Of a stretch of DNA of 64,000 nt, positions 12,265-59,653 are shown in pieces (position 1 is the stretch's first letter; every line of letters starts with the position of its first letter). The notes below the pieces were generated by a model that was not told the origin of the DNA, made no database searches, and saw only the letters and a list, made by a program, of their open reading frames with translations. The position numbers and the translations under genes are program-made. Location: NCBI GenBank assembly GCA_943359525.1, contig CALRHV010000003.1:521-64520 (forward strand), written 5' to 3'. The stretch is from Candidatus Uhrbacteria bacterium. GTDB taxonomy: Bacteria; Patescibacteriota; Patescibacteriia; UBA9934.

Positions 12265-13665
12265 TTAATAGGCTCCACTCCTGAAAAGCACGGCTAAAGG
12301 CGTTTTGACCACAATGACGAGGTCCAGCCAAGGGCTCCAGTTCTCAATATAGTACATATCTAGTCGGACTTCGTCGTCGAAGTCAAGCGATGCCCGGCCA
12401 CTGACTTGAGCCATGCCGGTAATGCCTGGTTTGATGGTGAGGACTTTTCTTTGGTGCGGCTTGTATAATGCGACTTCTTCTGGAAGGTGTGGACGTGGCC
12501 CCACAAGACTCATGCTGCCTATAAGAACGGAATAAAACTGCGGAATTTCGTCTAAACTCCAGTTTCGGATGAACTTTCCAACGCGGGTGACTCTTGGATC
12601 ATGTTGCAGTTTAAAAAGTGGCGTTCCTTCGCGTTCGTTGCCGTAGGTTTTCAAAAATTTAGGATCCGATCGGAGCGCATGGGCACCCTGAACCATCGAT
12701 CGGAACTTCAGGAACGAGAATTCTTTGCCGCCTTGGCCAACGCGAGGACGGGAGAAGAAGACCGATCCTGGATTCTCAATAACGATGGCAAGCGCAATGA
12801 TGACTTGCAGGGGGAGGGTGATGATGATGAGTGCGCTTGATGCAACGATATCGAAAATGCGCTTATAGATTGCGCCCCAACCGTCGAGTGGCGTTTTTGG
12901 CACTTCAATCACTGGCTGCTCGGCAAATGTGTGCATGATTGGCCGTAGCGTGCTGCCGGCAAACAAATCGGCGCTGTACAAAAACGTGCAGTGTTCGATA
13001 TCGGTAAACACTTTAATTGCCGTGACGTCAACGCGAGACGCGTCGGGGTCCGCGAGCACGATGGCATCGAGTTCATCGTTTTTTTTGAGATCGAGAAGTC
13101 GGTCGCGACTCTCTGGGGTGAATTGGGCAATATGAGCAACGACGCGGTAGCCGACGCTTGGATGCGTTTCAAAGAAGCGCTTCAGTTCGTTCCCGCTTTT
13201 TGTTTTCCCAATAATCACAACGGAATGGACGCCGATGTCGAATCTTCGAAGGGATCGTTGGAATATCCGGAGGAGTACGCGAATGGTGAGGACGAATACA
13301 ATTGCAAGGATCCATGTAGCCAGCACGATGAATCGGGATTCAAAGAGCGCACGGGAAAAGAAGGCGACTGCGAGGATGAGTGCGATGCTTGTAGATACGC
13401 CGGTGATCACTCGAGTCATTTCAGATGCTATTCGACGAGGATGGATGACATACAAGCCAGACACCGCGAAAATCGCCATGGTCACAAGCGCCATTGGGAG
13501 AATGACGCTGATGTATTGCTCAAACGACAGCGCGAACAGAACCGGTTTTATAGAGGTGAAGATCGAGGTAAAGCGGAGTGAGTATGCCGCCATTGCCGCA
13601 GAAACGAGTGCAAGATAGTCGAGCGGAATGAGGAGTGACGCAAATGCTAAATCTGCTCGCTTCAT
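12265..13665 (-). CDS. polyprenyl-phosphate sugar phosphotransferase (WbaP/bacterial sugar transferase family, priming enzyme)
   Basis: C-terminal catalytic block 'KRIFDIVASSALIIITLPL...FSFLKFRSM...LFKLQHDPRVTRVGKFIRNWSLDEIPQF...LVGPRP'; about five N-terminal TM helices. Confidence 0.8.
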   Translation of the reverse strand: MKRADLAFASLLIPLDYLALVSAAMAAYSLRFTSIFTSIKPVLFALSFEQYISVILPMALVTMAIFAVSGLYVIHPRRIASEMTRVITGVSTSIALILAVAFFSRALFESRFIVLATWILAIVFVLTIRVLLRIFQRSLRRFDIGVHSVVIIGKTKSGNELKRFFETHPSVGYRVVAHIAQFTPESRDRLLDLKKNDELDAIVLADPDASRVDVTAIKVFTDIEHCTFLYSADLFAGSTLRPIMHTFAEQPVIEVPKTPLDGWGAIYKRIFDIVASSALIIITLPLQVIIALAIVIENPGSVFFSRPRVGQGGKEFSFLKFRSMVQGAHALRSDPKFLKTYGNEREGTPLFKLQHDPRVTRVGKFIRNWSLDEIPQFYSVLIGSMSLVGPRPHLPEEVALYKPHQRKVLTIKPGITGMAQVSGRASLDFDDEVRLDMYYIENWSPWLDLVIVVKTPLAVLFRSGAY

Positions 13666-14065
13666 ATGGAAGTAGTTTACACCAGAAACGAAAATCACGA
13701 CCGTCAGGCCGTGATGTTCGATATAGCTTTCCGTTGGGGAGTACTGGTAAGCCGAATTTTGTCATAGCGCACATTTCCCACCATGGGAATGTTTGCCGGG
13801 ACGATCATCTCTCTGTGCGAGCGACCAATCTTGCTCTTGCACCAGCGTGGGTTTGCCACGTCTCCATGTTGCCATGGGACGAACGATGAAGCATGCGTTT
13901 TGCAACGACACACACCACCGCACTTTTCACTTTTGGTCAGACCGAAGTCTGATTTGTATGGTCTCTGTGGTACTTTCCCTCGGTTTAAGCATCGTATTTC
14001 AGGGCGATGGTGCGCCGATTCTGAATCGTTATGCCGTATGCCGGGTTGCCGTTAGCAACACACTT

Positions 14066-14200
14066 GGGCAGAACTTCCTCATTTTGCCCATTTTCGACTC
14101 AAGTCATCAGAAACTTCTTCAACGTACGTTCGAGTACGTCTCAGAAGTTTCTTCGACTTTCATCGAAACTGGACGAAAATGAGAAAGTTCTGCAGACACA
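14066..14200. repeat. Copy A of a roughly 135-nt duplicated element (about 80% identical to 26076-26210) containing an imperfect palindrome; preceded by a decayed tRNA-Val-like remnant (about 13995-14065)
   Basis: Aligned by eye: ccattttcgactca...tcagaaa...tcaacgtac...gagtacg...ttcatcgaaactgg.cgaaaat...agttct shared by both copies. Confidence 0.5.
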
Positions 14201-14420
14201 TCACATTGCTGTGACATGGGTGTTCGGACTTTCCTCTCTGCGCAGCCCCAGTGGAGCCATGCCGAGCGACCGCCTTATATCCCCAGCGGAAGGCAAGAAT
14301 AGCAGAAAAATGGGGAGAAGTAAAGAAAAGAGTTGCTATAAAATTCGAATCCCCCCGATCTGCGCGTGGAGATCGAGGGGCGTGGGTGCGGCGGCTGGCT
14401 GTTGCCGCCGCACCGGGTGG

Positions 14421-15008
14421 CTAGTTGTAAAGCCCCGTCTCGTTGTTCTCGAGGCCATCTTGGAAGGCTTCCGCGATCAGATCGCGGCCACGGAAGGCGG
14501 GGAGCGTCGCCACCTCTTCGGTTTCGTCGGCGCAGTCCACATGCTGGTTCTGGAAGCGATCCTTTCCCTCGGCGGTCCGGCGTTTGCCCTTACGAGCGAT
14601 GCGGCGTCCATCGTCGAGCTTGGACGCGTTGGCGTAGATGTCTCGCGCCGTGGACATGGTGCTGTCGATGATCCACCGGGTTTCGGTATCGACCTTCTCG
14701 GGGCGTTCGCTGAGGAGCAGCAGCACCTCAAGGAGGCGCAGACGAGTGGTTTCGAGGGCCTGCCGAGCGTCCTTACTGCGTACTCGTTCTTTCATCTTGC
14801 GAATGCGGCGGTGATTGGCCGCTGCGATGCGTTCGAGGCGCGAAACGGTGTCTTTGCCGTTCGTTCCACGAGAGACGCGATGAGCATAGCAGTGGAATCC
14901 GGTACCGTGACCGGTGTTGACGTTACTCTGCGGAGAAATCAAGTGCGCTCCTGTTTCTTGTGCTTCTGACGCCATTCCCGGCTGGGAACGGTCGCAAAAT
15001 AGTGCCAC
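14421..15008 (-). CDS. hypothetical protein in a GC-rich island
   Basis: ORF with markedly higher GC than neighbours; a strong GC hairpin (GGTGCGGCGGC...GCCGCCGCACC, 14383-14415) lies just downstream; the opposite-strand ORF 14031-14969 is also open, so strand is uncertain. Confidence 0.3.
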   Translation of the reverse strand: MALFCDRSQPGMASEAQETGAHLISPQSNVNTGHGTGFHCYAHRVSRGTNGKDTVSRLERIAAANHRRIRKMKERVRSKDARQALETTRLRLLEVLLLLSERPEKVDTETRWIIDSTMSTARDIYANASKLDDGRRIARKGKRRTAEGKDRFQNQHVDCADETEEVATLPAFRGRDLIAEAFQDGLENNETGLYN

Positions 15009-15143: not shown

Positions 15144-15670
15144 CTAGTGGTGCCCGCCGCCTCCGCCGCCAGCCGGCTTGGGTGCAGCGTGACTGCTGCC
15201 TCCTTTTCCGCCGGAGAAGGATACGACGAGGAAGATGAAGGTTGCACTTGCTAGGCCCCAGACAAGCTCCGGGGTCATGACGTGGCTGCTGATCCAGTAC
15301 ACCAGCGTGTCTAGGATGCACCAGGAGTAGAGCATGACCACGGAACCAATCATGAATCCGACGAGATGCTTGTCCGGTGGACAGCCGTCCACAACTTCTG
15401 TGGGATCAGGAGAACGTTGGCACCGAAGTGCAATACGGTCTCGATGATGCCCCAGAAGAAGTTGGCGAAGCCCACTAGGATGTATCGGACGGGGCCGATG
15501 CCGTGGAGACCGAGGTCGTTCGAGGGGTTGTGGAAGAAGACGCTAGCAATCATCGCGAGGATGATTACGATTGCGGCCTTTTTGTGCTTCCAGCCGAGCT
15601 CGATGACTCGGAAGGGCAAAAGCGTCCACCACTTCGCCCAGAAGTACGGAAAGAGGAAGAAGTTGATCAT
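15144..15670 (-). pseudogene. multi-TM membrane protein split into two overlapping ORFs (15350-15670 and 15144-15392), a possible frameshift; Gly-rich C-terminus
   Basis: Two same-strand ORFs overlap by 43 nt in different frames; both halves are hydrophobic/TM-like. Confidence 0.3.
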
Positions 15671-15709
15671 TGCGAACTCGGGAATGGATGTTGAGAAGGA
15701 TCTAGGTTG

Positions 15710-16042
15710 TCACTGCTTCAGAACCCGCGACCAAACGCTGGGCTCCTTGGCCGCAGAAGCGCGACGGTTCATCCACGGCGTCACGATCACTTTCTTGATC
15801 CACCGACACATGGGCCGGTAGATCAGACGGTGGAGCGCAAAGTCGTAGAGGATGATTCCGAGCACTGCTGAGAGCACGAACGCTGCGGCAGCGGTCGGTT
15901 CCGTTAGTGCGAGGAGCCGATAGTCCGGGTGGCTGAACGCCGCCACGGTGTACGGAATCAACCCGAGGGCCGATCCGATGACGACAGCGACGAACGCCGG
16001 GAGGAAATCGGAGAATACGCGAGTGAAAGACGGACGGGACAT
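15710..16042 (-). CDS. small two-TM membrane protein, hypothetical
   Basis: ORF track; two hydrophobic helices; GC-rich. Confidence 0.35.
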   Translation of the reverse strand: MSRPSFTRVFSDFLPAFVAVVIGSALGLIPYTVAAFSHPDYRLLALTEPTAAAAFVLSAVLGIILYDFALHRLIYRPMCRWIKKVIVTPWMNRRASAAKEPSVWSRVLKQ

Positions 16043-25184: not shown

Positions 25185-25261
25185 GGGCCTGTAGCTCAGT
25201 TGGTTAGAGCGCCGAGCTTATACCTCGGTGGTCCCTGGTTCAAGTCCAGGCAGGCCTACCA
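25185..25261 (+). tRNA. tRNA-Ile with anticodon UAU (reads AUA)
   Basis: Hand-folded cloverleaf: acceptor GGGCCTG/CAGGCCT (G1-U72), D-arm GCTC-AGTTGGTTA-GAGC, anticodon stem CCGAG/CTCGG with loop CTTATAC, T-arm CCTGG-TTCAAGT-CCAGG, encoded CCA; body is Ile-like. Confidence 0.65.
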
Positions 25262-25825: not shown

Positions 25826-25988
25826 AACGCGGATGAGGATGAATGAGAAGTGAGCTGAAATACAAAGCACCGTCATTTGTGACCAGTTTCGATGAACGAT
25901 GAGGAAATTTTGCGAGGCGTACTTCCTGGTACGGTGAGCAGAATTTCCGAAATCGTGAGTCGAAAATGGGCCAAATGCCGGTGCTTTG

Positions 25989-26065
25989 TGGTGCGCGCAT
26001 GTGGACTCGAACCACAGACCTTCACAATGTCAATGTGACGCTCTAACCAACTGAGCTATGCGCGC
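25989..26065 (-). tRNA. tRNA-Val (anticodon GAC)
   Basis: Reverse complement folds: acceptor GCGCGCA/TGCGCGC, D-arm GCTC-AGTTGGTTA-GAGC, anticodon stem TCACA/TGTGA with loop TTGACAT, T-arm TGTGG-TTCGAGT-CCACA, CCA. Confidence 0.85.
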
Positions 26066-26075
26066 TGATAGTAGA

Positions 26076-26210
26076 ACTGCCTAATTTTGTCCATTTTCGA
26101 CTCACTCGTCAGAAATCTCCTCAACGTACATTTGAGTACGCCTCGTCGATTTCTTTCTCCTTCATCGAAACTGGCCGAAAATTAGACAGTTCTACAAACT
26201 CGTTCGATGA
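26076..26210. repeat. Copy B of the roughly 135-nt duplicated element (see 14066-14200), immediately 5' of tRNA-Val and upstream of the next + gene
   Basis: About 80% identity to copy A; internal palindrome GAAATC...CGTAC-atttga-GTACG...GATTTC. Confidence 0.5.
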
Positions 26211-26860
26211 AAAGAATACGTTTCGGATCGAAAAGTGTCAACGGAAGGAGCGATATTCCCAGAAAAAGGTATACTGGGTTTTGTATGAACGAAGATATCG
26301 TGGAAGAATGTCATCGTCTGAGTGCTCAAGAAGTGAATTATCTTCATCATTACATGGATGAGTTTTATGGTTCATTAACGGAGGAGAACAAAGAAATTGG
26401 CACATTTCTTCACGAATCTGATCACGCAGGACGACTATTGGATGTTGCATGCGGTCCAAGCGCATTATATTGGGCTATGTTTCATCCGAATGTGACACAT
26501 TTCTGCGGTATTGATGCGCGAGAGGATTCCATTACGCATTTACAATCCCTGCTTGCTGAAGCAGCGAATGGAAAGGTTGAAGCAGATGTTGAGGTTTCAA
26601 TGACAAATAACGGACTGGCGTGCGTGAGTGGAAATATTCCTCGTTCAAACATTAAGTGGGTTCTTGCTGATGTTGAATACACACACGGTACAAATACTGC
26701 GTTGACGGCGAATGCGGTTGATACAAATATTTATATTGGATACGGAACGAACGGAACACCAACGCCAACGAAAACTCTCTTTTGGAATCTTATGATTCCT
26801 CCGGATGGTGTTGGAGGGTATTGCTCGAGTGCGGTGAACGTTTCCACTATCATTCACTAG
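26207..26860 (+). CDS. hypothetical protein, possible SAM-dependent methyltransferase
   Basis: 'LLDVACGPSALYWAM' resembles methyltransferase motif I; alternative start at 26285. Confidence 0.35.
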   Translation: MKRIRFGSKSVNGRSDIPRKRYTGFCMNEDIVEECHRLSAQEVNYLHHYMDEFYGSLTEENKEIGTFLHESDHAGRLLDVACGPSALYWAMFHPNVTHFCGIDAREDSITHLQSLLAEAANGKVEADVEVSMTNNGLACVSGNIPRSNIKWVLADVEYTHGTNTALTANAVDTNIYIGYGTNGTPTPTKTLFWNLMIPPDGVGGYCSSAVNVSTIIH

Positions 26861-29461: not shown

Positions 29462-29559
29462 GCAAGAGATGAAGGAAGTGTGAGGAACTAGCCTATCGGC
29501 TGTGGAGGTTATGGTCAAGGATTTTTGTGCATGACGTATGGGTATTCGCCCAACGTTGG

Positions 29560-29631
29560 CCAAAAACGATTCACGGCCCAGCTCCGAAGAGCCGAGCCGT
29601 GAGCGTGTAGCGCGTAGTGCGTGATGCCGAG
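29560..29631 (-). terminator. conserved 3' module 1 of 3: a 13-bp GC stem with UUCG tetraloop plus U-tract (CACGGCUCGGCUC-UUCG-GAGCUGGGCCGUG AAUCGUUUUU)
   Basis: Directly follows the paralog stop codon; about 85-90% identical to the modules at 30253-30321 and 30964-31032. Confidence 0.55.
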
Positions 29632-30192
29632 CTAGTCGCGAACGACGGTCCAGATGTTCGAGTTCGGATTGAGCGTGACGGTCATCGGCCTGTCGAGGAC
29701 GAAGGATTCGCCGTGGCCTTCCACGAGAATGTCGCCTTTTCGAACGAAGACCTTCCAGGCGCACCTGGCGTTGTTCAGTCGGTCGTCCGACAGGAGGATC
29801 TCTCGTCGCGCCGCCGGCGACACGTTGCCAGCGGGGAAGATGGTTCCGTTCCACGCAAGAGACGACGCGCGGTCGAACGCCTCGTGGATTTCCCTGATCC
29901 CATCGCTTCGATCGGGGTTGCCGAGCCGCCACTCCGCGAGCCACTGTAGCGCCTCGAACAGCGCGATGATCCCGTGGTCCGTGACGGTGTTCAGCTGAGC
30001 GAACGGGATGGTGTGGTAGGGAACAGCTTCGATGGTGCCGATACCGATGCTTCGGCGCAGAGCCTCGAGCTGTCCGAACGCGGCGACACGAAGTTCATGA
30101 TTCGGCCGATGGCTGTGTTCTCGGACGAACCGGCGCGTACGGTGGAAAGCCTCGTCGATGGATGTGAGAAGCGGGTCTCGCAAGCGGTTCAT
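29632..30192 (-). CDS. paralog 1 of a tandem 3-gene family of unknown function (about 187 aa, conserved 'GNVSPAA(R/Q)REI' and C-terminal 'NIW(T/D)VVRD')
   Basis: ORF track; aligns along its whole length with 30322-30885 and 31033-31596 at roughly 30% identity; GC-rich. Confidence 0.55.
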   Translation of the reverse strand: MNRLRDPLLTSIDEAFHRTRRFVREHSHRPNHELRVAAFGQLEALRRSIGIGTIEAVPYHTIPFAQLNTVTDHGIIALFEALQWLAEWRLGNPDRSDGIREIHEAFDRASSLAWNGTIFPAGNVSPAARREILLSDDRLNNARCAWKVFVRKGDILVEGHGESFVLDRPMTVTLNPNSNIWTVVRD

Positions 30193-30252
30193 GAGTGCCT
30201 CGGGGGAGTGTGTAGCGAAGAGATGATAGAAATTCCTTAATCAACCGTCAAT

Positions 30253-30321
30253 AAACGAATCACGGCCCAGCCCCAGAGGAGCCGAGCCGTGCGCGTGTGG
30301 CACGTAATGTGTAGTGCCGGG
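30253..30321 (-). terminator. conserved 3' module 2 of 3 (same stem-loop plus U-tract)
   Basis: See 29560-29631. Confidence 0.55.
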
Positions 30322-30885
30322 CTAGTCGCGAACGACGTCCCAGATCTGGTTCTCCTCATCGAACTGGACGTTCGGCGGGATGGGTGTGACTGCGACGTTG
30401 CCGTAGCCAGTCACCATGAATGTGGGGCTAATCGGGTCGTTGTCGAATCCTTCCGCGATCCACTTACCGCGACCTTCCGGGTTCCGGAAGATCGGCAACT
30501 TGTGAATCTCCCGTTGTGCAGCAGGAGAGGCGGTCCCGTCCGGGAAGATCAGGCTGTCGCCAAAGCCTTCGTCGCCGATCTCATTGAATGCGATCACCAC
30601 GCTGCGGTGTGTCACGAGGGTATTCTCCGCAAACCGCCACTCGGCGAGGAGCTGCGCGGCGTGGAAAAGCCGGTGTACTTCACGACCTGCCTCGAAGGCG
30701 TACATCCGCGATTTCACGACACGGTACGGAATCTCCGCCATGCCGTCCCATGTCATGTTGATGTTGAACAGGGCCTGAACCCAGTCGTCGATGTGATCGC
30801 CGGGGCCTGAACGATCGATCATCCGATGGATACGTTGGACGGCGTCGAGGTATGCCTTGCACATCGCGCGCGTTGGTAGTTTCAC
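30322..30885 (-). CDS. paralog 2 of the tandem family
   Basis: See 29632-30192. Confidence 0.55.
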   Translation of the reverse strand: MKLPTRAMCKAYLDAVQRIHRMIDRSGPGDHIDDWVQALFNINMTWDGMAEIPYRVVKSRMYAFEAGREVHRLFHAAQLLAEWRFAENTLVTHRSVVIAFNEIGDEGFGDSLIFPDGTASPAAQREIHKLPIFRNPEGRGKWIAEGFDNDPISPTFMVTGYGNVAVTPIPPNVQFDEENQIWDVVRD

Positions 30886-30963
30886 GATGGAAATCTCCGG
30901 GTTGAATGAGTGGATCCCGCAAAATACTAGCAGAATTCGCTATTTCTTTCAATACTTTTCCAA

Positions 30964-31032
30964 AAACGAATCACGGCCCAGCCCCAGAGGAGCCGAGCCG
31001 TGAGCGTACTGCACGTGGTGTGTGACACCGAA
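30964..31032 (-). terminator. conserved 3' module 3 of 3
   Basis: See 29560-29631. Confidence 0.55.
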
Positions 31033-31596
31033 CTAGTCGCGAACGATGTCCCAGACGTTCGTCTTCCGGTCGCAGCGGAAGACCGCCGGATCCAGTTCGA
31101 TGATTGCCGAGTTGCCTTCTCCGGTCACGTGGGCGGTGTAGCTCGTCGGATCCATGCCCTCCACGATCCAGTGCGCCGGGCTCCGAACACTGCCGAAGAT
31201 CGGCATCTTGCGGATTTCCCGCTGTGCCGCCGGGGAGACGTTGCCGTCCAGGAAGACCACGCTGTCCGCTGGGTCTTCATCGCCGACGTCATTGTATGCT
31301 GCGATCACATCGTGTTCCGTCACATCGGTTCCGGGCTGGCGCATGTACTCCGCCTGGAGTTGTGTTGCTTGGAAGAGACGCCAGATTTCGCGGCCAATGC
31401 CGAAGGGGAGCACTCGAGAATCCACGAGTCGGTATGGTATGACTGCCGGATTCTCGTACGCGAGGACAATCGTGCTCATCGCCGCGAGCGAGAACGAGGC
31501 ATTCTCGCTGCGATCTCCGTCGGGGAACTTCCGCTGAAGGCGTTCTACGGCATTCAAGAAGGAGAGGAGGATCGTGGGTGTCAGCATGCGTGCCAT
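31033..31596 (-). CDS. paralog 3 of the tandem family
   Basis: See 29632-30192. Confidence 0.55.
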   Translation of the reverse strand: MARMLTPTILLSFLNAVERLQRKFPDGDRSENASFSLAAMSTIVLAYENPAVIPYRLVDSRVLPFGIGREIWRLFQATQLQAEYMRQPGTDVTEHDVIAAYNDVGDEDPADSVVFLDGNVSPAAQREIRKMPIFGSVRSPAHWIVEGMDPTSYTAHVTGEGNSAIIELDPAVFRCDRKTNVWDIVRD

Positions 31597-40469: not shown

Positions 40470-40545
40470 TGGTGGACCGTATCGGGATCGAACCGATGAC
40501 CTTCTGACTGCCAGCCAGACGCTCTACCAGCTGAGCTAACGGCCC
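40470..40545 (-). tRNA. tRNA-Ala (anticodon GGC)
   Basis: Reverse complement folds with G3-U70 acceptor pair (Ala identity), anticodon loop CTGGCAG, T-arm ATCGG-TTCGATC-CCGAT. Confidence 0.85.
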
Positions 40546-40556
40546 TAAGGATGTCC

Positions 40557-40633
40557 TGGTGGACGCCGGGGGATTCGAACCCTCGACCCTCTCGGTGTAA
40601 ACGAGATGCTCTAACCAGCTGAGCTAGGCGTCC
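40557..40633 (-). tRNA. tRNA-Val (anticodon UAC)
   Basis: Reverse complement: acceptor GGACGCC/GGCGTCC, anticodon stem TCTCG/CGAGA with loop TTTACAC, T-arm GAGGG-TTCGAAT-CCCCC. Confidence 0.85.
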
Positions 40634-40727: not shown

Positions 40728-41420
40728 ATGGCAAAATCCACAATCTCTACACGATGGTCAAAAAAACTTGCATACGCAATTGGTCTTATTGTATCGGACG
40801 GAAATATGTCACCGGACGGCCGTCATGTGACTTTCACATCAAAAGATCTTGATCTTATTGAACAATTCCTTCGTGCGTTGAATATCGAAGGCTATCATGT
40901 CGGAAGAAAATCTCGCGGCCATGAACTCGAAAAGAAGTATTTTGTCGTACAGATTGGAGACGTTCGATTTTATCGTTTTTTATTGGGGATCGGCATCATG
41001 CAAAGAAAATCAAAAATCCTTCAAGAAATACAGATGCCAAAAAATCTTCTTCCCCATTTTGTTCGAGGCGTGTTTGATGGGGATGGAACATGCTACTCGT
41101 ATTATGATCCACGCTGGAAATCCAGCTTCATGGTATACACCGCTTTTGTATCTGCGAGTCCAATATTTCTTACGTGGCTACAAAAATACCTTGATGCTAC
41201 TTATGGTATTCAGGGCACAATCAGTGCCATGGTCAAACACGTCCAACAGCTCCGGTATGCGAAAAAGGCTTCGCGGAAACTTTTTTCTATAATGTATCGA
41301 AATGCCGATAATTTGTACCTTAAAAGAAAATACTTGAAATTATCAGAGGCGTTGGCTATACTCCCCTCGGTTCAAGAAAAGAATGCGCGAGTGGAGAAAT
41401 TGGTAAACTCGCCAGCTTGA
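40728..41420 (+). mobile_element. free-standing LAGLIDADG homing endonuclease gene (two LAGLIDADG motifs), AT-rich; last 12 codons run into tRNA-Leu
   Basis: 'LAYAIGLIVSDGNMS' and 'LLPHFVRGVFDGDGTC' double motifs; markedly lower GC than flanks; the reading frame continues 36 nt into the downstream tRNA before the stop. Confidence 0.65.
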
Positions 41421-41471
41421 GGGGCTGGTGCTAGCAATAGCTTGGAGGTTCGAGTCCTCTCTCGCGCACCA
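41385..41471 (+). tRNA. tRNA-Leu (anticodon GAG), type II
   Basis: Acceptor GCGCGAG/CTCGCGC, 3-bp D-stem GAG/CTC, anticodon stem CCAGC/GCTGG with loop TTGAGGG, 15-nt variable arm, T-arm GGAGG-TTCGAGT-CCTCT, CCA. Confidence 0.85.
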
Positions 41472-51887: not shown

Positions 51888-51962
51888 AAAACCCTCCCCC
51901 TGCCAAGGCGCTCGACGAACCTGAGTTGGGTGAGGAGAGTGAGTAGGAGGGGGTCTGAGCCT
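51888..51962. repeat. left arm of a roughly 75-bp inverted repeat pair (partner at 52244-52325)
   Basis: The reverse complement aligns to the right arm at about 80% identity (tcagaccccctcc...cactctcctc...cgtcgagcgccttgg.agggggaggg). Confidence 0.5.
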
Positions 51963-52243: not shown

Positions 52244-52325
52244 GCCCAAAAGTCAGACCCCCTCCACCCACTCTCCTCGTCCGGCTCGGGACTCGTCGAG
52301 CGCCTTGGTAGGGGGAGGGCCTTTT
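52244..52325. repeat. right arm of the inverted repeat, about 120 nt upstream of groES
   Basis: See left arm. Confidence 0.5.
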
Positions 52326-52443: not shown

Positions 52444-52728
52444 ATGCAACTTCGCCCACTCGGAGGTCATATCATTGTTGAGCCACAGGAAAGAGAAACA
52501 AAAACAGCGTCGGGAATTTATCTTCCGGATGCGGGTGAAAAGCGTCAGGGTCAGGGAGTTGTCATTGCTATCGGTCCAGGAAAGATCGAGAAAGGCGAGC
52601 GACAGCCAGTGGAGGTAAAGGTTGGTGATGTCGTCGTGTTCAAGCAATACGCGCCAGACGAAGTCAAGCTCGAGAGCAAAACATTTCTGATTGTTTCCGT
52701 AGATGACGTCACTGCAGTTATCGAATAA
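52444..52728 (+). CDS. groES: co-chaperonin GroES
   Basis: 'LRPLGGHIIVEP...SGIYLPD...GVVIAIGPG' canonical GroES. Confidence 0.9.
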   Translation: MQLRPLGGHIIVEPQERETKTASGIYLPDAGEKRQGQGVVIAIGPGKIEKGERQPVEVKVGDVVVFKQYAPDEVKLESKTFLIVSVDDVTAVIE

Positions 52729-56963: not shown

Positions 56964-57887
56964 ATGAAAAAATCACTTGTCACTGGCGGCTCTGGTTTTA
57001 TCGGTTCCCATCTTGTGGATACCTTGGTCGATCGCGGCGACATTGTTACCGTCGTCGATCTCGTTGAGCCAGCGCCAGATCGGCGAAATGCGAAGGCCAC
57101 CTACATTCTTTGCGATATTCGCGATCGGAAGCTTGAACAGATCGTGGTCGATGTCGCACCCGAAATCGTTTTCCATCTTGCAGCACACATCGACGACCGC
57201 GCATCCGTTCTTGATCCAATGATGAACGCCGAACACAACGAACTTGGGTCAATTAACGTATTTGAATCCGCAAAACGCGCCGGTGCTTCATCTATTATTT
57301 TTGCATCAAGCTGTGCGGCGTACGGATTGCCAGAGGCGATTCCCGTAAAAGAATCCGCAGCAGTCCACCCGCAAACTCCATACGGTATTTCGAAGTTCGC
57401 TGCGGAGGCGTACCTCAATTCTTATGCGATCCGATACGGGATTCACGCCGTGTCACTTCGATTCGCGAATGTGTACGGCCCGCGACAATACGGCAATAAA
57501 GAAGCAGGTGCGATTGCGATTTTTACGGAAAAGTTGTTGCACGGTGAATCCCCATTTTTGAATGGGGATGGAACAACAACGCGAGATTACGTCTTCGTGC
57601 ACGATATTGTTGCGGCATTGATTGCGGCGTCGGCTAGTACGGAATCCGGTGTGTACAATGTAGGAACTGGACGGGAAGTGTCCACGAACGCATTGTTTAA
57701 AATGATCGCTGGAGAGCTTGGCACGGATATTCTGTCAACGCCTCGCCCCGAAGTGAAAGATGCGGTGACGCGAATGAGCCTGGATACAGCAACGATTCGA
57801 AAAGCGATGTTTTGGCAGTCGACGGTAGAGCTTGAAGAGGGAATTCGTGAAACTATTGCCTGGTATCGGGAGTTTCTGAAGATGTGA
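56964..57887 (+). CDS. NAD-dependent epimerase/dehydratase (GalE/UDP-sugar 4-epimerase-like SDR)
   Basis: Rossmann 'VTGGSGFIGSHLV', catalytic 'YGISKFAAE' (YxxxK). Confidence 0.8.
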   Translation: MKKSLVTGGSGFIGSHLVDTLVDRGDIVTVVDLVEPAPDRRNAKATYILCDIRDRKLEQIVVDVAPEIVFHLAAHIDDRASVLDPMMNAEHNELGSINVFESAKRAGASSIIFASSCAAYGLPEAIPVKESAAVHPQTPYGISKFAAEAYLNSYAIRYGIHAVSLRFANVYGPRQYGNKEAGAIAIFTEKLLHGESPFLNGDGTTTRDYVFVHDIVAALIAASASTESGVYNVGTGREVSTNALFKMIAGELGTDILSTPRPEVKDAVTRMSLDTATIRKAMFWQSTVELEEGIRETIAWYREFLKM

Positions 57888-58660
57888 AAAAGTCTTACGG
57901 CCAACATTTCCTCCACGACAAGAACATCATTGCAAAGATTGTTGGTGCGGTTTCGGTTGAGCCTGGTGAGCTTTTAATCGAGGTTGGCCCTGGCGCCGGG
58001 GCGTTGACTGAAGGCCTCGCCGATCTTGCCGTGGGAGCGATGACGCTCATCGAAGCCGATCGAGACCTCATTCCTTCCCTCCGCGATCGGTTTCCTCACG
58101 CAGAAATCGTTCAAGCCGATGCGGCATTGGTTGATTACGATGCTCTCACTCACGATCGACCATGGGTTTTCGTTAGTAATCTTCCGTACAACGCCGGAAA
58201 TGCGATTCTTGAGAAAGTCTTTACCTCGAAGAATCCGCCACGCCAGCTCGTGGTAATGGTTCAGAAGGAAGTAGGGGAGCGCATGATGGCAAAAGCCGGG
58301 GAAATGAGCGTGCTCTCTGTTGCAACGCAGCTGTATTGCGACGTTGAGCGTTTGTTTATCGTCAAACCCGGTGCATTTATTCCTCCGCCAAAGGTGGACT
58401 CGATTGTGCTTCGGATGACTACAAAAGTCGGAGGCTCCGATCGCGAACCCATCATCGCACTCGCGAAAATCGGTTTTGCCCATCGCCGTAAACAGCTCAG
58501 GCAAACCCTCGCGCAGGCAAACGTCGCCGATCTTGTAGCGATCGATTCCGCAATCGAATTCATCGGATTTCCAAAAACCGTCCGTCCACAGGAGTTGCGA
58601 ACAGAAGATTGGATGAAGTTATATTCCGTCTTTGCGAGCATAGCGAAGCAATCTAGGTGA
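57884..58660 (+). CDS. rsmA: 16S rRNA (adenine1518/1519-N6)-dimethyltransferase
   Basis: 'SYGQHFL' N-terminus, 'EVGPGAGALT' SAM motif, 'NLPYN' catalytic motif. Confidence 0.85.
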   Translation: MKKSYGQHFLHDKNIIAKIVGAVSVEPGELLIEVGPGAGALTEGLADLAVGAMTLIEADRDLIPSLRDRFPHAEIVQADAALVDYDALTHDRPWVFVSNLPYNAGNAILEKVFTSKNPPRQLVVMVQKEVGERMMAKAGEMSVLSVATQLYCDVERLFIVKPGAFIPPPKVDSIVLRMTTKVGGSDREPIIALAKIGFAHRRKQLRQTLAQANVADLVAIDSAIEFIGFPKTVRPQELRTEDWMKLYSVFASIAKQSR

Positions 58661-58861
58661 ACTTGATTGCCGCGTCGGGATTACCCTCCTCGCAATGACG
58701 GAGGCTCTGAACACATCCGTGTTCCTGTGTATACACGGGAAGTGTTCACCCCCTATCGATGATATACTTTACGAAGCGACAAGGGCTTTCTCATTTGAGA
58801 CTATTTTCGATGAACAAGGAACAAAGTTCGCGAGACGTACTTCTCGGTACGACGAGCGAAT

Positions 58862-59653
58862 TTGCGACGCAGTGAGTCGAAAAGAGGCCAAATGAGGAAG
58901 ACCGCGATATTGCGTATGGCGGAGGGAGAAAGAATCATCATCACGCGAAAAAAAGCCGTCCTGAACCGCGAACAAAAAACGGGGTTGGGTATGGTGGTCG
59001 GCTTTGGGTCGCTTGCACTCGTTTTTGGAGTGTTTTTCCTGTGGAAGCACATTGCTTCCCCATTTGTGATTTCGTACGTTGGTCCGAAGTTTCTCACTGG
59101 CGACGAAAAGGAACAGCAAGAAATGGAAACGCTCAAGAAGCAGGATACAGATGCCGATGGTCTCGATGACTACAGCGAGCTGTACATTTACAAGACGAGC
59201 CCGTACCTCAAGGATTCCGATAGCGACGGCGCGGAGGACAAAACGGAGATTTCTCAAGGTGAAGATCCAAATTGTGCACCAAACATGCCTTGCGCAACAG
59301 CCGCAGCAGATACGGTGAACCCGGAAACACTTAAAGGTACTTTCGCGGAACAGATTGCAGCAGAGGCTGGAGCAACGCCAGCTCCTGAGGCGCCAGCAAC
59401 ATCGGTGGATATTCAGGCTACGCTCGCAGCAATGACGACAGACCAAATCCGAACATTGCTCATTCAGGCCGGTGGCGACACAGCGGTGATCAATGCACTT
59501 TCCGACGACGATCTTCGTGCGGCATTAGCACAGGCCATTACACAGATGCAGGTTGAGGATGCGGCAACTGCTGACGCTTCGGCTTCTGCTGGGTCTGCAC
59601 CATCGGACACCGCAGATACAACGGAAGATTCCACTCAAACCACACAGGAATAG
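58862..59653 (+). CDS. membrane-anchored protein with thrombospondin-type-3-like DxDxDG calcium-binding repeats and Ala/Thr/Asp-rich tail
   Basis: TM 'GMVVGFGSLALVFGVFFLW'; 'DTDADGLDDYSE' and 'DSDSDGAEDKTE'. Confidence 0.45.
   Translation: MRRSESKRGQMRKTAILRMAEGERIIITRKKAVLNREQKTGLGMVVGFGSLALVFGVFFLWKHIASPFVISYVGPKFLTGDEKEQQEMETLKKQDTDADGLDDYSELYIYKTSPYLKDSDSDGAEDKTEISQGEDPNCAPNMPCATAAADTVNPETLKGTFAEQIAAEAGATPAPEAPATSVDIQATLAAMTTDQIRTLLIQAGGDTAVINALSDDDLRAALAQAITQMQVEDAATADASASAGSAPSDTADTTEDSTQTTQE

Follow-up and report, generated by a model that had tools for sequence, protein, structure and literature searches.

The gene for RNase P RNA in the window analyzed here, a 64-kb stretch of DNA from a Candidatus Uhrbacteria bacterium, is interrupted at its J5/7 junction by a palindromic repeat of ~124 bp, the whole of which forms one long imperfect hairpin. 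The inserted repeat (copy A) belongs to a dispersed family that displays extensive covariation, gain-and-loss polymorphism between genomes, and recent multiplication in one genome. As far as we could find, this is a new family of a known kind, i.e., a MITE/REPIN-like palindromic dispersed repeat, carried by a lineage of Candidatus Uhrbacteria (Patescibacteria/CPR); the literature we consulted held no account of such repeats in Patescibacteria or Uhrbacteria. We consider it likely that the family consists of self-contained hairpins that are tolerated in transcripts, and that copy A is one of its members. The prediction originally made from this stretch of DNA is thereby partly confirmed in what it observed and partly supported in how it interpreted it.

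Repeat search and nhmmer identified four copies of the hairpin repeat in the window, A through D. Copy A lies within rnpB at 14068..14193 on the plus strand, in what we call the F orientation (nhmmer 14070-14191, E=1e-30). Copies B (26071..26195, plus strand; nhmmer E=1e-25) and C (25866..25985, minus strand) are mutually inverted and bracket the tRNA-Val(GAC) gene, which is located at 25989..26065 on the minus strand (ARAGORN; Rfam tRNA, 71.9 bits). Read on the strand of the tRNA, copy B stands in the R orientation 6 nt from the 5' end of the gene, and copy C stands in the F orientation and starts 0-3 nt past the CCA end. Copy D (58783..58903, minus strand) is intergenic, between a KsgA-type gene (57884-58660, plus strand) and an ORF at 58862/58892-59653 (plus strand), and its arm contains an in-frame ATG at 58892. 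Each of the four copies folds into one continuous imperfect hairpin of ~60 bp, with z-scores of -4 to -11.5 relative to shuffled sequence. Specifically, the hairpin of copy A has a minimum free energy of -57.7 kcal/mol on the plus strand and -75.5 kcal/mol on the minus strand (z-scores of -8.7 and -11.5, respectively). The element matches no family in Rfam 15: a permissive search of 13500-14500 returned chance-level hits to mir-873 (E=0.08) and sR38 (E=0.27), and a search of the window at the gathering score returned six tRNAs only.

Copies A and B are identical at 100 of 126 positions (79%) when aligned in the register that pairs 14066 with 26069. The similarity between these two copies had been pointed out in the original prediction and is real, but the coordinates given there for copy B were 7 nt off, a register in which identity is 71%. 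The central hairpins that it quoted do exist, with pairing that runs along the entire element, and the compensatory stem changes that it described between A and B also hold in the correct register. They comprise a change from C-G to T-A in the inner stem and three further compensated changes in the outer stem.

The same pattern is strong across the family. We aligned 99 distinct copies on a consensus structure of 40 pairs and found that 93.2% of the cells hold a standard pair, versus 78.4% in shuffles. Double changes occur in 28 of the 40 pairs (549 cells), and none of 500 shuffles reaches the observed value on any of these measures. As a control, sliding the 3' partner by 1-3 columns brings pairing down to 28-46%. 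The compensatory changes run almost exclusively from one Watson-Crick pair to another, and the tally of cells (3626 Watson-Crick, 46 G.T, 77 A.C, and 211 other mismatches) contains few wobbles. The two strands are not equivalent: the R strand folds better than the F strand in all 99 copies (mean of -61.4 versus -44.9 kcal/mol), and on it, two conserved internal loops are closed by tandem G.A/A.G plus G.U pairs. In addition, orthologous copies are more conserved than their own flanks in seven of seven pairs. Altogether, the covariation and the conservation above flanks bear out the earlier view of a structured element rather than a neutral remnant.

The family extends well beyond the window. 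A search pattern built from blocks conserved across all four window copies, run against species-representative genomes, matched 95 DNA stretches, nearly all of them from Candidatus Uhrbacteria or Patescibacteria. A few TPA MAGs labelled Gammaproteobacteria are among the matches, yet these are syntenic with the others. Synteny also suggests that the genome of the window is part of the same lineage. The pattern found no match in viral contigs, and a phage origin is unsupported. In 750 kb drawn from about 15 Uhrbacteria/Patescibacteria MAGs, the nhmmer profile recovered 143 distinct copies, of which 134 are full length. The consensus is non-coding, ~124 bp long, and reads 5'-TAGGACTTCCTCATTTGGTCTATTTTCGACTCAG...CAACGTAC-N6-GTACGTCTC...CTTCATCGAAACTAGCCTCAAATGAGAAAGTCCTA-3'; its arms are complementary end to end and close in the terminal inverted repeats TAGGAC...GTCCTA. 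The search pattern did not select 33 of the full copies, and in these, too, conservation of the apex, CAACGTAC-N6-GTACGTCTC, is 90% or higher.

The host gene of copy A was delimited by Rfam RF00010 and by orthologs. It is an rnpB gene for a class A-like RNase P RNA, located at 13737..14285 on the minus strand. RF00010 aligns to 13737-14137 on the minus strand with 55.6 bits (E=4e-16), the 5' part being misaligned owing to the insert; an uninterrupted ortholog (L086, 1499-1923) scores 97.6 bits (E=2e-30) over model positions 1-367. Both scores fall below the gathering score of 100. RNase P RNAs of CPR bacteria have large helix extensions and escape standard Rfam thresholds (PMC8172020). In the window, the gene is missed at the threshold partly because the repeat splits it, as the comparison of 55.6 with 97.6 bits indicates. 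A three-way alignment of the window with L086 and a further locus, L078, places the RNase P motifs GAGAGGAAAGUCCGAAC (CR-I) and ACAAAAUUCGGCUUAC (CR-V) on the minus strand. Identity to L086 is 91.7% over 13730-14064 and 96.8% over 14218-14310, whereas it is only 75% in the neighboring coding DNA.

This assignment removes the tRNA pseudogene that had been proposed beside copy A. The interval 13995-14065, formerly read as a decayed copy of tRNA-Val, is the body of rnpB, namely, P8-P9 and the following region of RNase P RNA, within the part that is 91.7% identical to the ortholog. Its likeness to tRNA-Val consists only of the 8-mer TGGTGCGC, present at 14008 and at the CCA end of the tRNA. The local alignment score of 16 is reached by 10% of shuffles, and the global identity of 39/80 lies under the shuffled mean of 42. 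ARAGORN calls no tRNA in the interval, nor does Rfam give a tRNA match there at E<=1.

Comparison of the three loci demonstrates that copy A is a clean insertion in J5/7 of rnpB, present in the window and in L078 and absent in L086. At the insertion point, L086 has GAAAC alone, between a small hairpin (loop AGCAAU, after P5) and the 5' strand of P7 (AGUGU, then P8). Type-B RNase P RNAs carry helix P5.1 between P5 and P7. A second polymorphic site lies just 3' of rnpB, where L086 has an element and the window has none. Since these rnpB sites are empty in one genome or the other, the inserted unit must be the whole hairpin, including its outer stem. The variability of the outer stems could also have come from a core that entered a terminator or hairpin already in place, but the same empty sites speak against this; the site compared between L095 and L068 does retain a short palindromic remnant. 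The rnpB transcript, read from the minus strand, carries the R strand of copy A, i.e., the more stably folding one. When the whole 560-nt transcript is folded, 106 paired bases of the element have their partner within the element and 5 have it elsewhere, and between the rnpB copies of the window and L078, there are five double compensatory changes and no single ones. A motif search of the 750 kb of carrier loci found no insertions in rRNA, tmRNA, or SRP RNA genes.

The location of the copies relative to genes follows a marked pattern. Copies are intergenic: an open frame that extends for 150 nt or more to either side encloses at most 3 of the 134 full-length copies, one of which is beside a tRNA. 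In-frame insertion into proteins, as practiced by Rickettsia palindromic elements, is ruled out by the same count. Twenty-eight of the 134 copies are no more than 15 nt from a tRNA gene, mostly 0-8 nt, and in all 28, the tRNA is faced by the same end of the element, the TAGGACTTCC arm, on the 5' side as well as on the 3' side (24 distinct tRNA/side combinations). Protein genes display a similar polarity. Among stop codons that face the end with the TAGGACTTCC arm, 23 of 43 lie at -5 to +3 nt, versus only about 5 of 51 at the other end, and the element's own TAG often serves as the gene's stop codon. Two tRNAs are bracketed by mutually complementary copies. Orientation relative to co-directional flanking genes is unbiased (33 versus 32), and with respect to replication (73 versus 53, p=0.09), a lagging-strand bias is weak or absent.

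Intrinsic terminators of neighboring genes end 0-8 nt before the element on both of its sides, well above background. The element itself does not act as an intrinsic terminator, a role ruled out by the lack of a T-run or U-tract after the hairpin. Neither side of the copies has a conserved flanking sequence or a positional peak of promoter-like sites, and an own promoter was rejected on the latter ground. At the tRNA-Val locus, the consensus sequence of a sigma-70-like promoter is matched at 26213..26241 on the minus strand (TTGACA, 17-nt spacer, TATTCT; 10/12 matches versus a shuffle mean of 0.5; a consensus match only). Judged from this sequence match, transcription from the site would begin close to the first base of copy B, on the R strand, and continue into tRNA-Val. 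The primary transcript would then run hairpin, tRNA-Val, hairpin, and copy B would constitute the 5' leader of the tRNA precursor.

Copies have been gained or lost between related genomes: for 16 or more orthologous sites, one genome carries the element where another lacks it, and both rnpB-associated sites are among them. The MAG CALRGY (TrH-25oct19-103) holds at least 47 full copies in its sampled part and shows a young burst: 12 copies at unrelated loci resemble one another at 93% or more, and for 20 copies, there is a paralog of 95% identity or higher. In other genomes, that of the window included, the nearest paralog is 75-85% identical, which marks the copies as old. The young copies end in TAGGAC...GTCCTA, and 11 of the 12 are flanked by TA...TA, in which the TA could belong to the inverted repeat. 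In a comparison of loci L024 and L092, the occupied site has TAA to the left and to the right of the element, and the empty site has TAA once, as the stop codon of the upstream gene. Flanking direct repeats of at least 7 nt occur 13 times versus about 5 expected, and no target-site duplication is consistent beyond the possible TA.

We also looked for the enzyme that would mobilize the family. An autonomous parent gene would be bounded by the element termini TAGGACTTCCTCATTT...AAATGAGRAAGTCCTA, and the 750 kb contain no orphan termini; the genes found between paired copies are housekeeping genes (recA, L10, queA, ftsA, and similar). A tblastn search of the 750 kb of loci and the window with an IS200 TnpA query, which is a weak test, gave no IS200/RAYT match at E<1. 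In the window, 43 of the 45 greedily called ORFs of at least 150 aa were scanned against Pfam (E<=1e-8, or 1e-3 for ten of the ORFs), with no match to an integrase, recombinase, or transposase. The other two ORFs, 14031-14966 and 15366-15818, both on the plus strand, overlap rnpB or scanned minus-strand ORFs.

Under the reading that we prefer, that of a MITE/REPIN-like family whose hairpins are tolerated in transcripts, the element would be mobilized in trans, now or formerly, by an enzyme whose gene lies at another place in the genome. This enzyme would recognize either the terminal inverted repeats or the folded hairpin. The element would preferentially land at TA, at stop codons, or precisely where a tRNA gene begins or ends, with a fixed end toward the gene. 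We propose that self-folding is what makes the element tolerable in transcripts: behaving as an additional, inert helix, it could be accommodated in tRNA leaders and trailers, in 3' UTRs, and in RNase P RNA, where copy A may form an added arm at the place of P5.1 in type-B RNAs. Selection against copies that lose the hairpin would then generate the compensatory pattern. An element that is purely selfish and in decay would not be expected to be conserved above its flanks or to show so strict a polarity toward the ends of tRNAs and toward stop codons. Because of these two observations, we retain two other explanations with some probability, one that gives the element a role in serving the host and one that gives it a RAYT-type mechanism.

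These alternatives, together with the one from which the work departed, can be weighed on the same evidence. That tRNA-Val and its upstream palindrome were duplicated to a place 12 kb away, where the tRNA decayed and an integrase scar was left beside a GC-rich island, accords with the 79% identity of copies A and B, with the occurrence of TGGTGCGC at both 14008 and the CCA end, and with the higher G+C content to the right of copy A. We now regard this history as extremely improbable. It is refuted by the rnpB identity of 13995-14065 and by the copy number of the family: the elements are dispersed, a third copy lying across the same tRNA and a fourth at 58.8 kb, and related genomes contain 143. 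The tRNA likeness is at chance level, and neither ARAGORN nor Rfam reports a tRNA. As for the scar, there is no integrase or transposase among the 43 scanned ORFs of the window, and the 3' end of the tRNA is not duplicated beyond the 8-mer. The supposed island has a G+C content of only 57%, versus about 51% elsewhere, and its ORFs have no Pfam hits and include no integrases.

A host-serving RNA module is a different matter. Here, the transcribed hairpin would signal processing, stability, or a boundary, with the R strand as the optimized RNA and the spread of the family as a secondary matter. The better fold of the R strand in 99/99 copies, with internal loops that turn into tandem G.A/A.G plus G.U pairs, is what such a module would display, as are the apex conservation of at least 90% in the 33 copies outside pattern selection and the conservation of orthologs above flanks. 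The placement of copies exactly at tRNA ends and stop codons points the same way. So do the two tRNAs bracketed by complementary copies, which resemble rRNA processing stems, and the promoter-like site that would make copy B the 5' leader of tRNA-Val. However, orientation shows no bias (33 versus 32), which means that half of the copies would be transcribed as the weaker F strand. Wobbles are rare (46 G.T and 77 A.C versus 3626 Watson-Crick cells, with 211 others), unlike in typical structured RNAs; no U-tract follows the hairpin, and the young burst looks like transposition. On balance, we hold a host-serving role to be rather unlikely. Its conceivable forms include a long double-stranded RNase III substrate that separates the tRNAs and mRNAs of polycistronic transcripts, or a REP-like protector of 3' ends. 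The other alternative is a strict REPIN, in which a folded single DNA strand is moved by a single-copy HUH tyrosine transposase (RAYT/IS200-type), leaves no target-site duplication, and persists vertically. It accounts for a long extragenic hairpin with no clear target-site duplication, for compensatory changes confined almost exclusively to Watson-Crick pairs, for one strand being markedly more stable, and for long persistence and conservation across species, properties that match those of REPINs (PMC3116915, PMC3337134). It fares less well with the absence of a RAYT/IS200-like ORF in the 750 kb by tblastn, a weak test, and with the lack of a strong replication-strand bias (73 versus 53, p=0.09). 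In addition, the arms are not themselves short REP-like palindromes, and the TA flanks of the young copies suggest a DDE-type TA target. Accordingly, we deem a strict REPIN unlikely.

Two features of the family stand out: a copy has inserted into RNase P RNA, and the polarity of the element toward tRNA ends and stop codons is strict. The first helped to hide an essential gene: rnpB stayed under the Rfam threshold, and a fragment of it was read as a tRNA pseudogene. CPR bacteria are known for unusually expanded RNase P RNAs and rRNAs, and the insertion provides a concrete case of a structural RNA in this group being lengthened by a dispersed hairpin repeat. The second is left unexplained by what ERIC, Correia, RPE, or REPIN sequences do, and it points to an uncharacterized mechanism of targeting or selection. 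Furthermore, the family is abundant in symbiont genomes of roughly 1 Mb that are otherwise repeat-poor. More speculatively, and with a low probability in our estimation, the hairpin could be more than selfish DNA, namely, a domesticated gene-boundary module of CPR bacteria. One particular end of it would attach exactly where tRNAs, stable RNAs, and ORFs end, and the transcribed hairpin would be used, e.g., by RNase III and RNase P, to cut compact polycistronic transcripts. RNase P RNA itself would work with a mobile 124-nt arm or, after excision, as two pieces. If that were true, repeat insertion would quite generally give rise to the odd "extended" forms of RNase P RNA and rRNA seen in CPR bacteria.

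Among known systems, the element resembles MITEs in being small, non-coding, dispersed in multiple copies, bounded by terminal inverted repeats, and polymorphic for insertion. Two families considered to be MITEs, ERIC (~127 bp) and the Neisseria Correia elements, are imperfect palindromes of ~100-155 bp with terminal inverted repeats, which occupy intergenic sites in both orientations, insert at TA, and are co-transcribed with their neighbors; Correia hairpins are RNase III substrates. The Uhrbacteria element is unrelated to them in sequence and host, and its TA duplication is only a possible one. To our knowledge, neither insertion into a stable-RNA gene nor polarity toward tRNA ends is a feature of ERIC or Correia elements.

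With REPIN/REP sequences of Pseudomonas and enterobacteria, the element shares the hairpin type, the extragenic sites, and the persistence. REPINs are non-coding, extragenic hairpins of ~100 nt, present in tens of copies just downstream of genes; they leave no obvious target-site duplication, compensatory changes preserve their hairpin, and lineages retain them over long periods (PMC3116915, PMC3337134). The Uhrbacteria element differs in that its host is a CPR bacterium, no RAYT was found with it, it has no sequence similarity to REPINs, and its arms lack a REP-like internal palindrome on inspection of the consensus. We know of no report of strict polarity toward tRNA ends in REPINs.

A partial parallel is offered by integron attC sites, imperfect palindromes of 57-141 bp that lie directly after ORF stops, conserve structure more than sequence, and function as one folded strand. 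In contrast, the core sequence of the Uhrbacteria element is highly conserved, its copies occur in either orientation, dispersed between housekeeping genes and RNA genes, and it lacks a cassette array and the GTTRRRY boxes R' and R''; nor was an integrase found with it.

The insert in rnpB has parallels of its own. The intervening sequences (IVSs) of 23S rRNA and helix P5.1 of type-B RNase P RNA are, like it, extra self-contained stem-loops at a permissive point of an essential RNA. P5.1, however, is a vertically inherited helix, whereas the rnpB insert is a dispersed repeat. The IVSs of 23S rRNA are excised by RNase III, which leaves a fragmented rRNA that is not religated; the likeness of the rnpB insert to them that is shown here is one of geometry, i.e., a self-contained helix of ~60 bp within a stable RNA. 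The closest precedent for a palindromic repeat within a stable-RNA gene is the tmRNA gene of Rickettsia bellii, which contains one Rickettsia palindromic element (RPE) (PMC1458961). RPEs are likewise palindromes of ~100-150 bp in a reduced genome that may sit within a functional stable-RNA gene, but they typically lie in frame in protein genes (53/526 in R. bellii), as at most 3/134 copies of the Uhrbacteria element do. Altogether, the element is unrelated in sequence to these systems and lives in a different host phylum; it acts like ERIC, Correia, REPIN, and RPE sequences, and within rnpB like a 23S IVS, yet it is a member of none of these families.

The left terminus of the hairpin-forming palindromic repeat varies among the copies of the family. 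In approximately 13 copies, TAGTCC replaces TAGGAC, such that the 4-nt core GGAC is inverted to its reverse complement (examples in related MAGs are the copies at L005:7609, L032:619, L065:4696, and L070:6248). MAG CALRGY has 12 near-identical young copies at unrelated loci, four of them with the TAGTCC terminus, and the differences among the 12 lie mainly in the 3-nt apex loop, which reads ATG, GTT, AGG, or ATA. At the apex of another family copy (L089:621-786), an insertion of about 55 nt splits the repeat, which may reflect a nested insertion or a rearrangement.

One arm of copy D, the window copy at 58783-58903 (-), contains an ATG at 58892 that is in frame with the ORF at 58862-59653 (+) and is preceded, inside the repeat, by AAGAGG. 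Copy D may therefore provide the downstream gene with both its ribosome-binding site and its start codon, although translation of this ORF could alternatively begin at another in-frame ATG, at 58916. At L057:1186-2223, two inverted copies of the element bracket a gene for an NYN-domain protein (a predicted ribonuclease), with the same end of the element facing inward as in the pair around tRNA-Val(GAC) in the window.

The RNase P RNA gene (rnpB) ortholog at L078:1300-1960 carries an extra expansion of about 70 nt, in addition to the repeat insertion that it has in common with the window. This expansion falls in the hairpin that reads CAGAC-UUCG-GUCUG in the window RNase P RNA. Immediately upstream of the rnpB 5′ end, the window contains a GC-rich hairpin region (14344-14444, -), for which the weak, sub-threshold match to Rfam sX13 (24.6 bits, E = 0.024) is probably due to chance.

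Other repeats in the window include a tandem array at 29558-31299, in which a unit of about 700 nt occurs three times in diverged form (66-77% identity, spacing 690-711 nt); the ORFs into which these units fall gave no Pfam match. A 27-nt inverted repeat (51892-51918 and 52293-52319; 96% complementary, 374 nt between arms) lies upstream of a GroEL-type gene at 52703.

Among the tRNA genes, an ORF with a LAGLIDADG-like domain (40728-41417, +; PF14528, E = 1.6e-9) is sandwiched between tRNA-Val(TAC)/tRNA-Ala(GGC) (40470-40633, -) and tRNA-Leu(GAG) (41385-41471, +); the ORF and the tRNA-Leu call overlap at the 3′ end of the ORF. Finally, a tRNA-Ile with anticodon TAT (UAU) is located at 25185-25261 (+), 0.7 kb from the repeat-bracketed tRNA-Val; decoding of AUA by a tRNA-Ile with a UAU anticodon is uncommon in bacteria.
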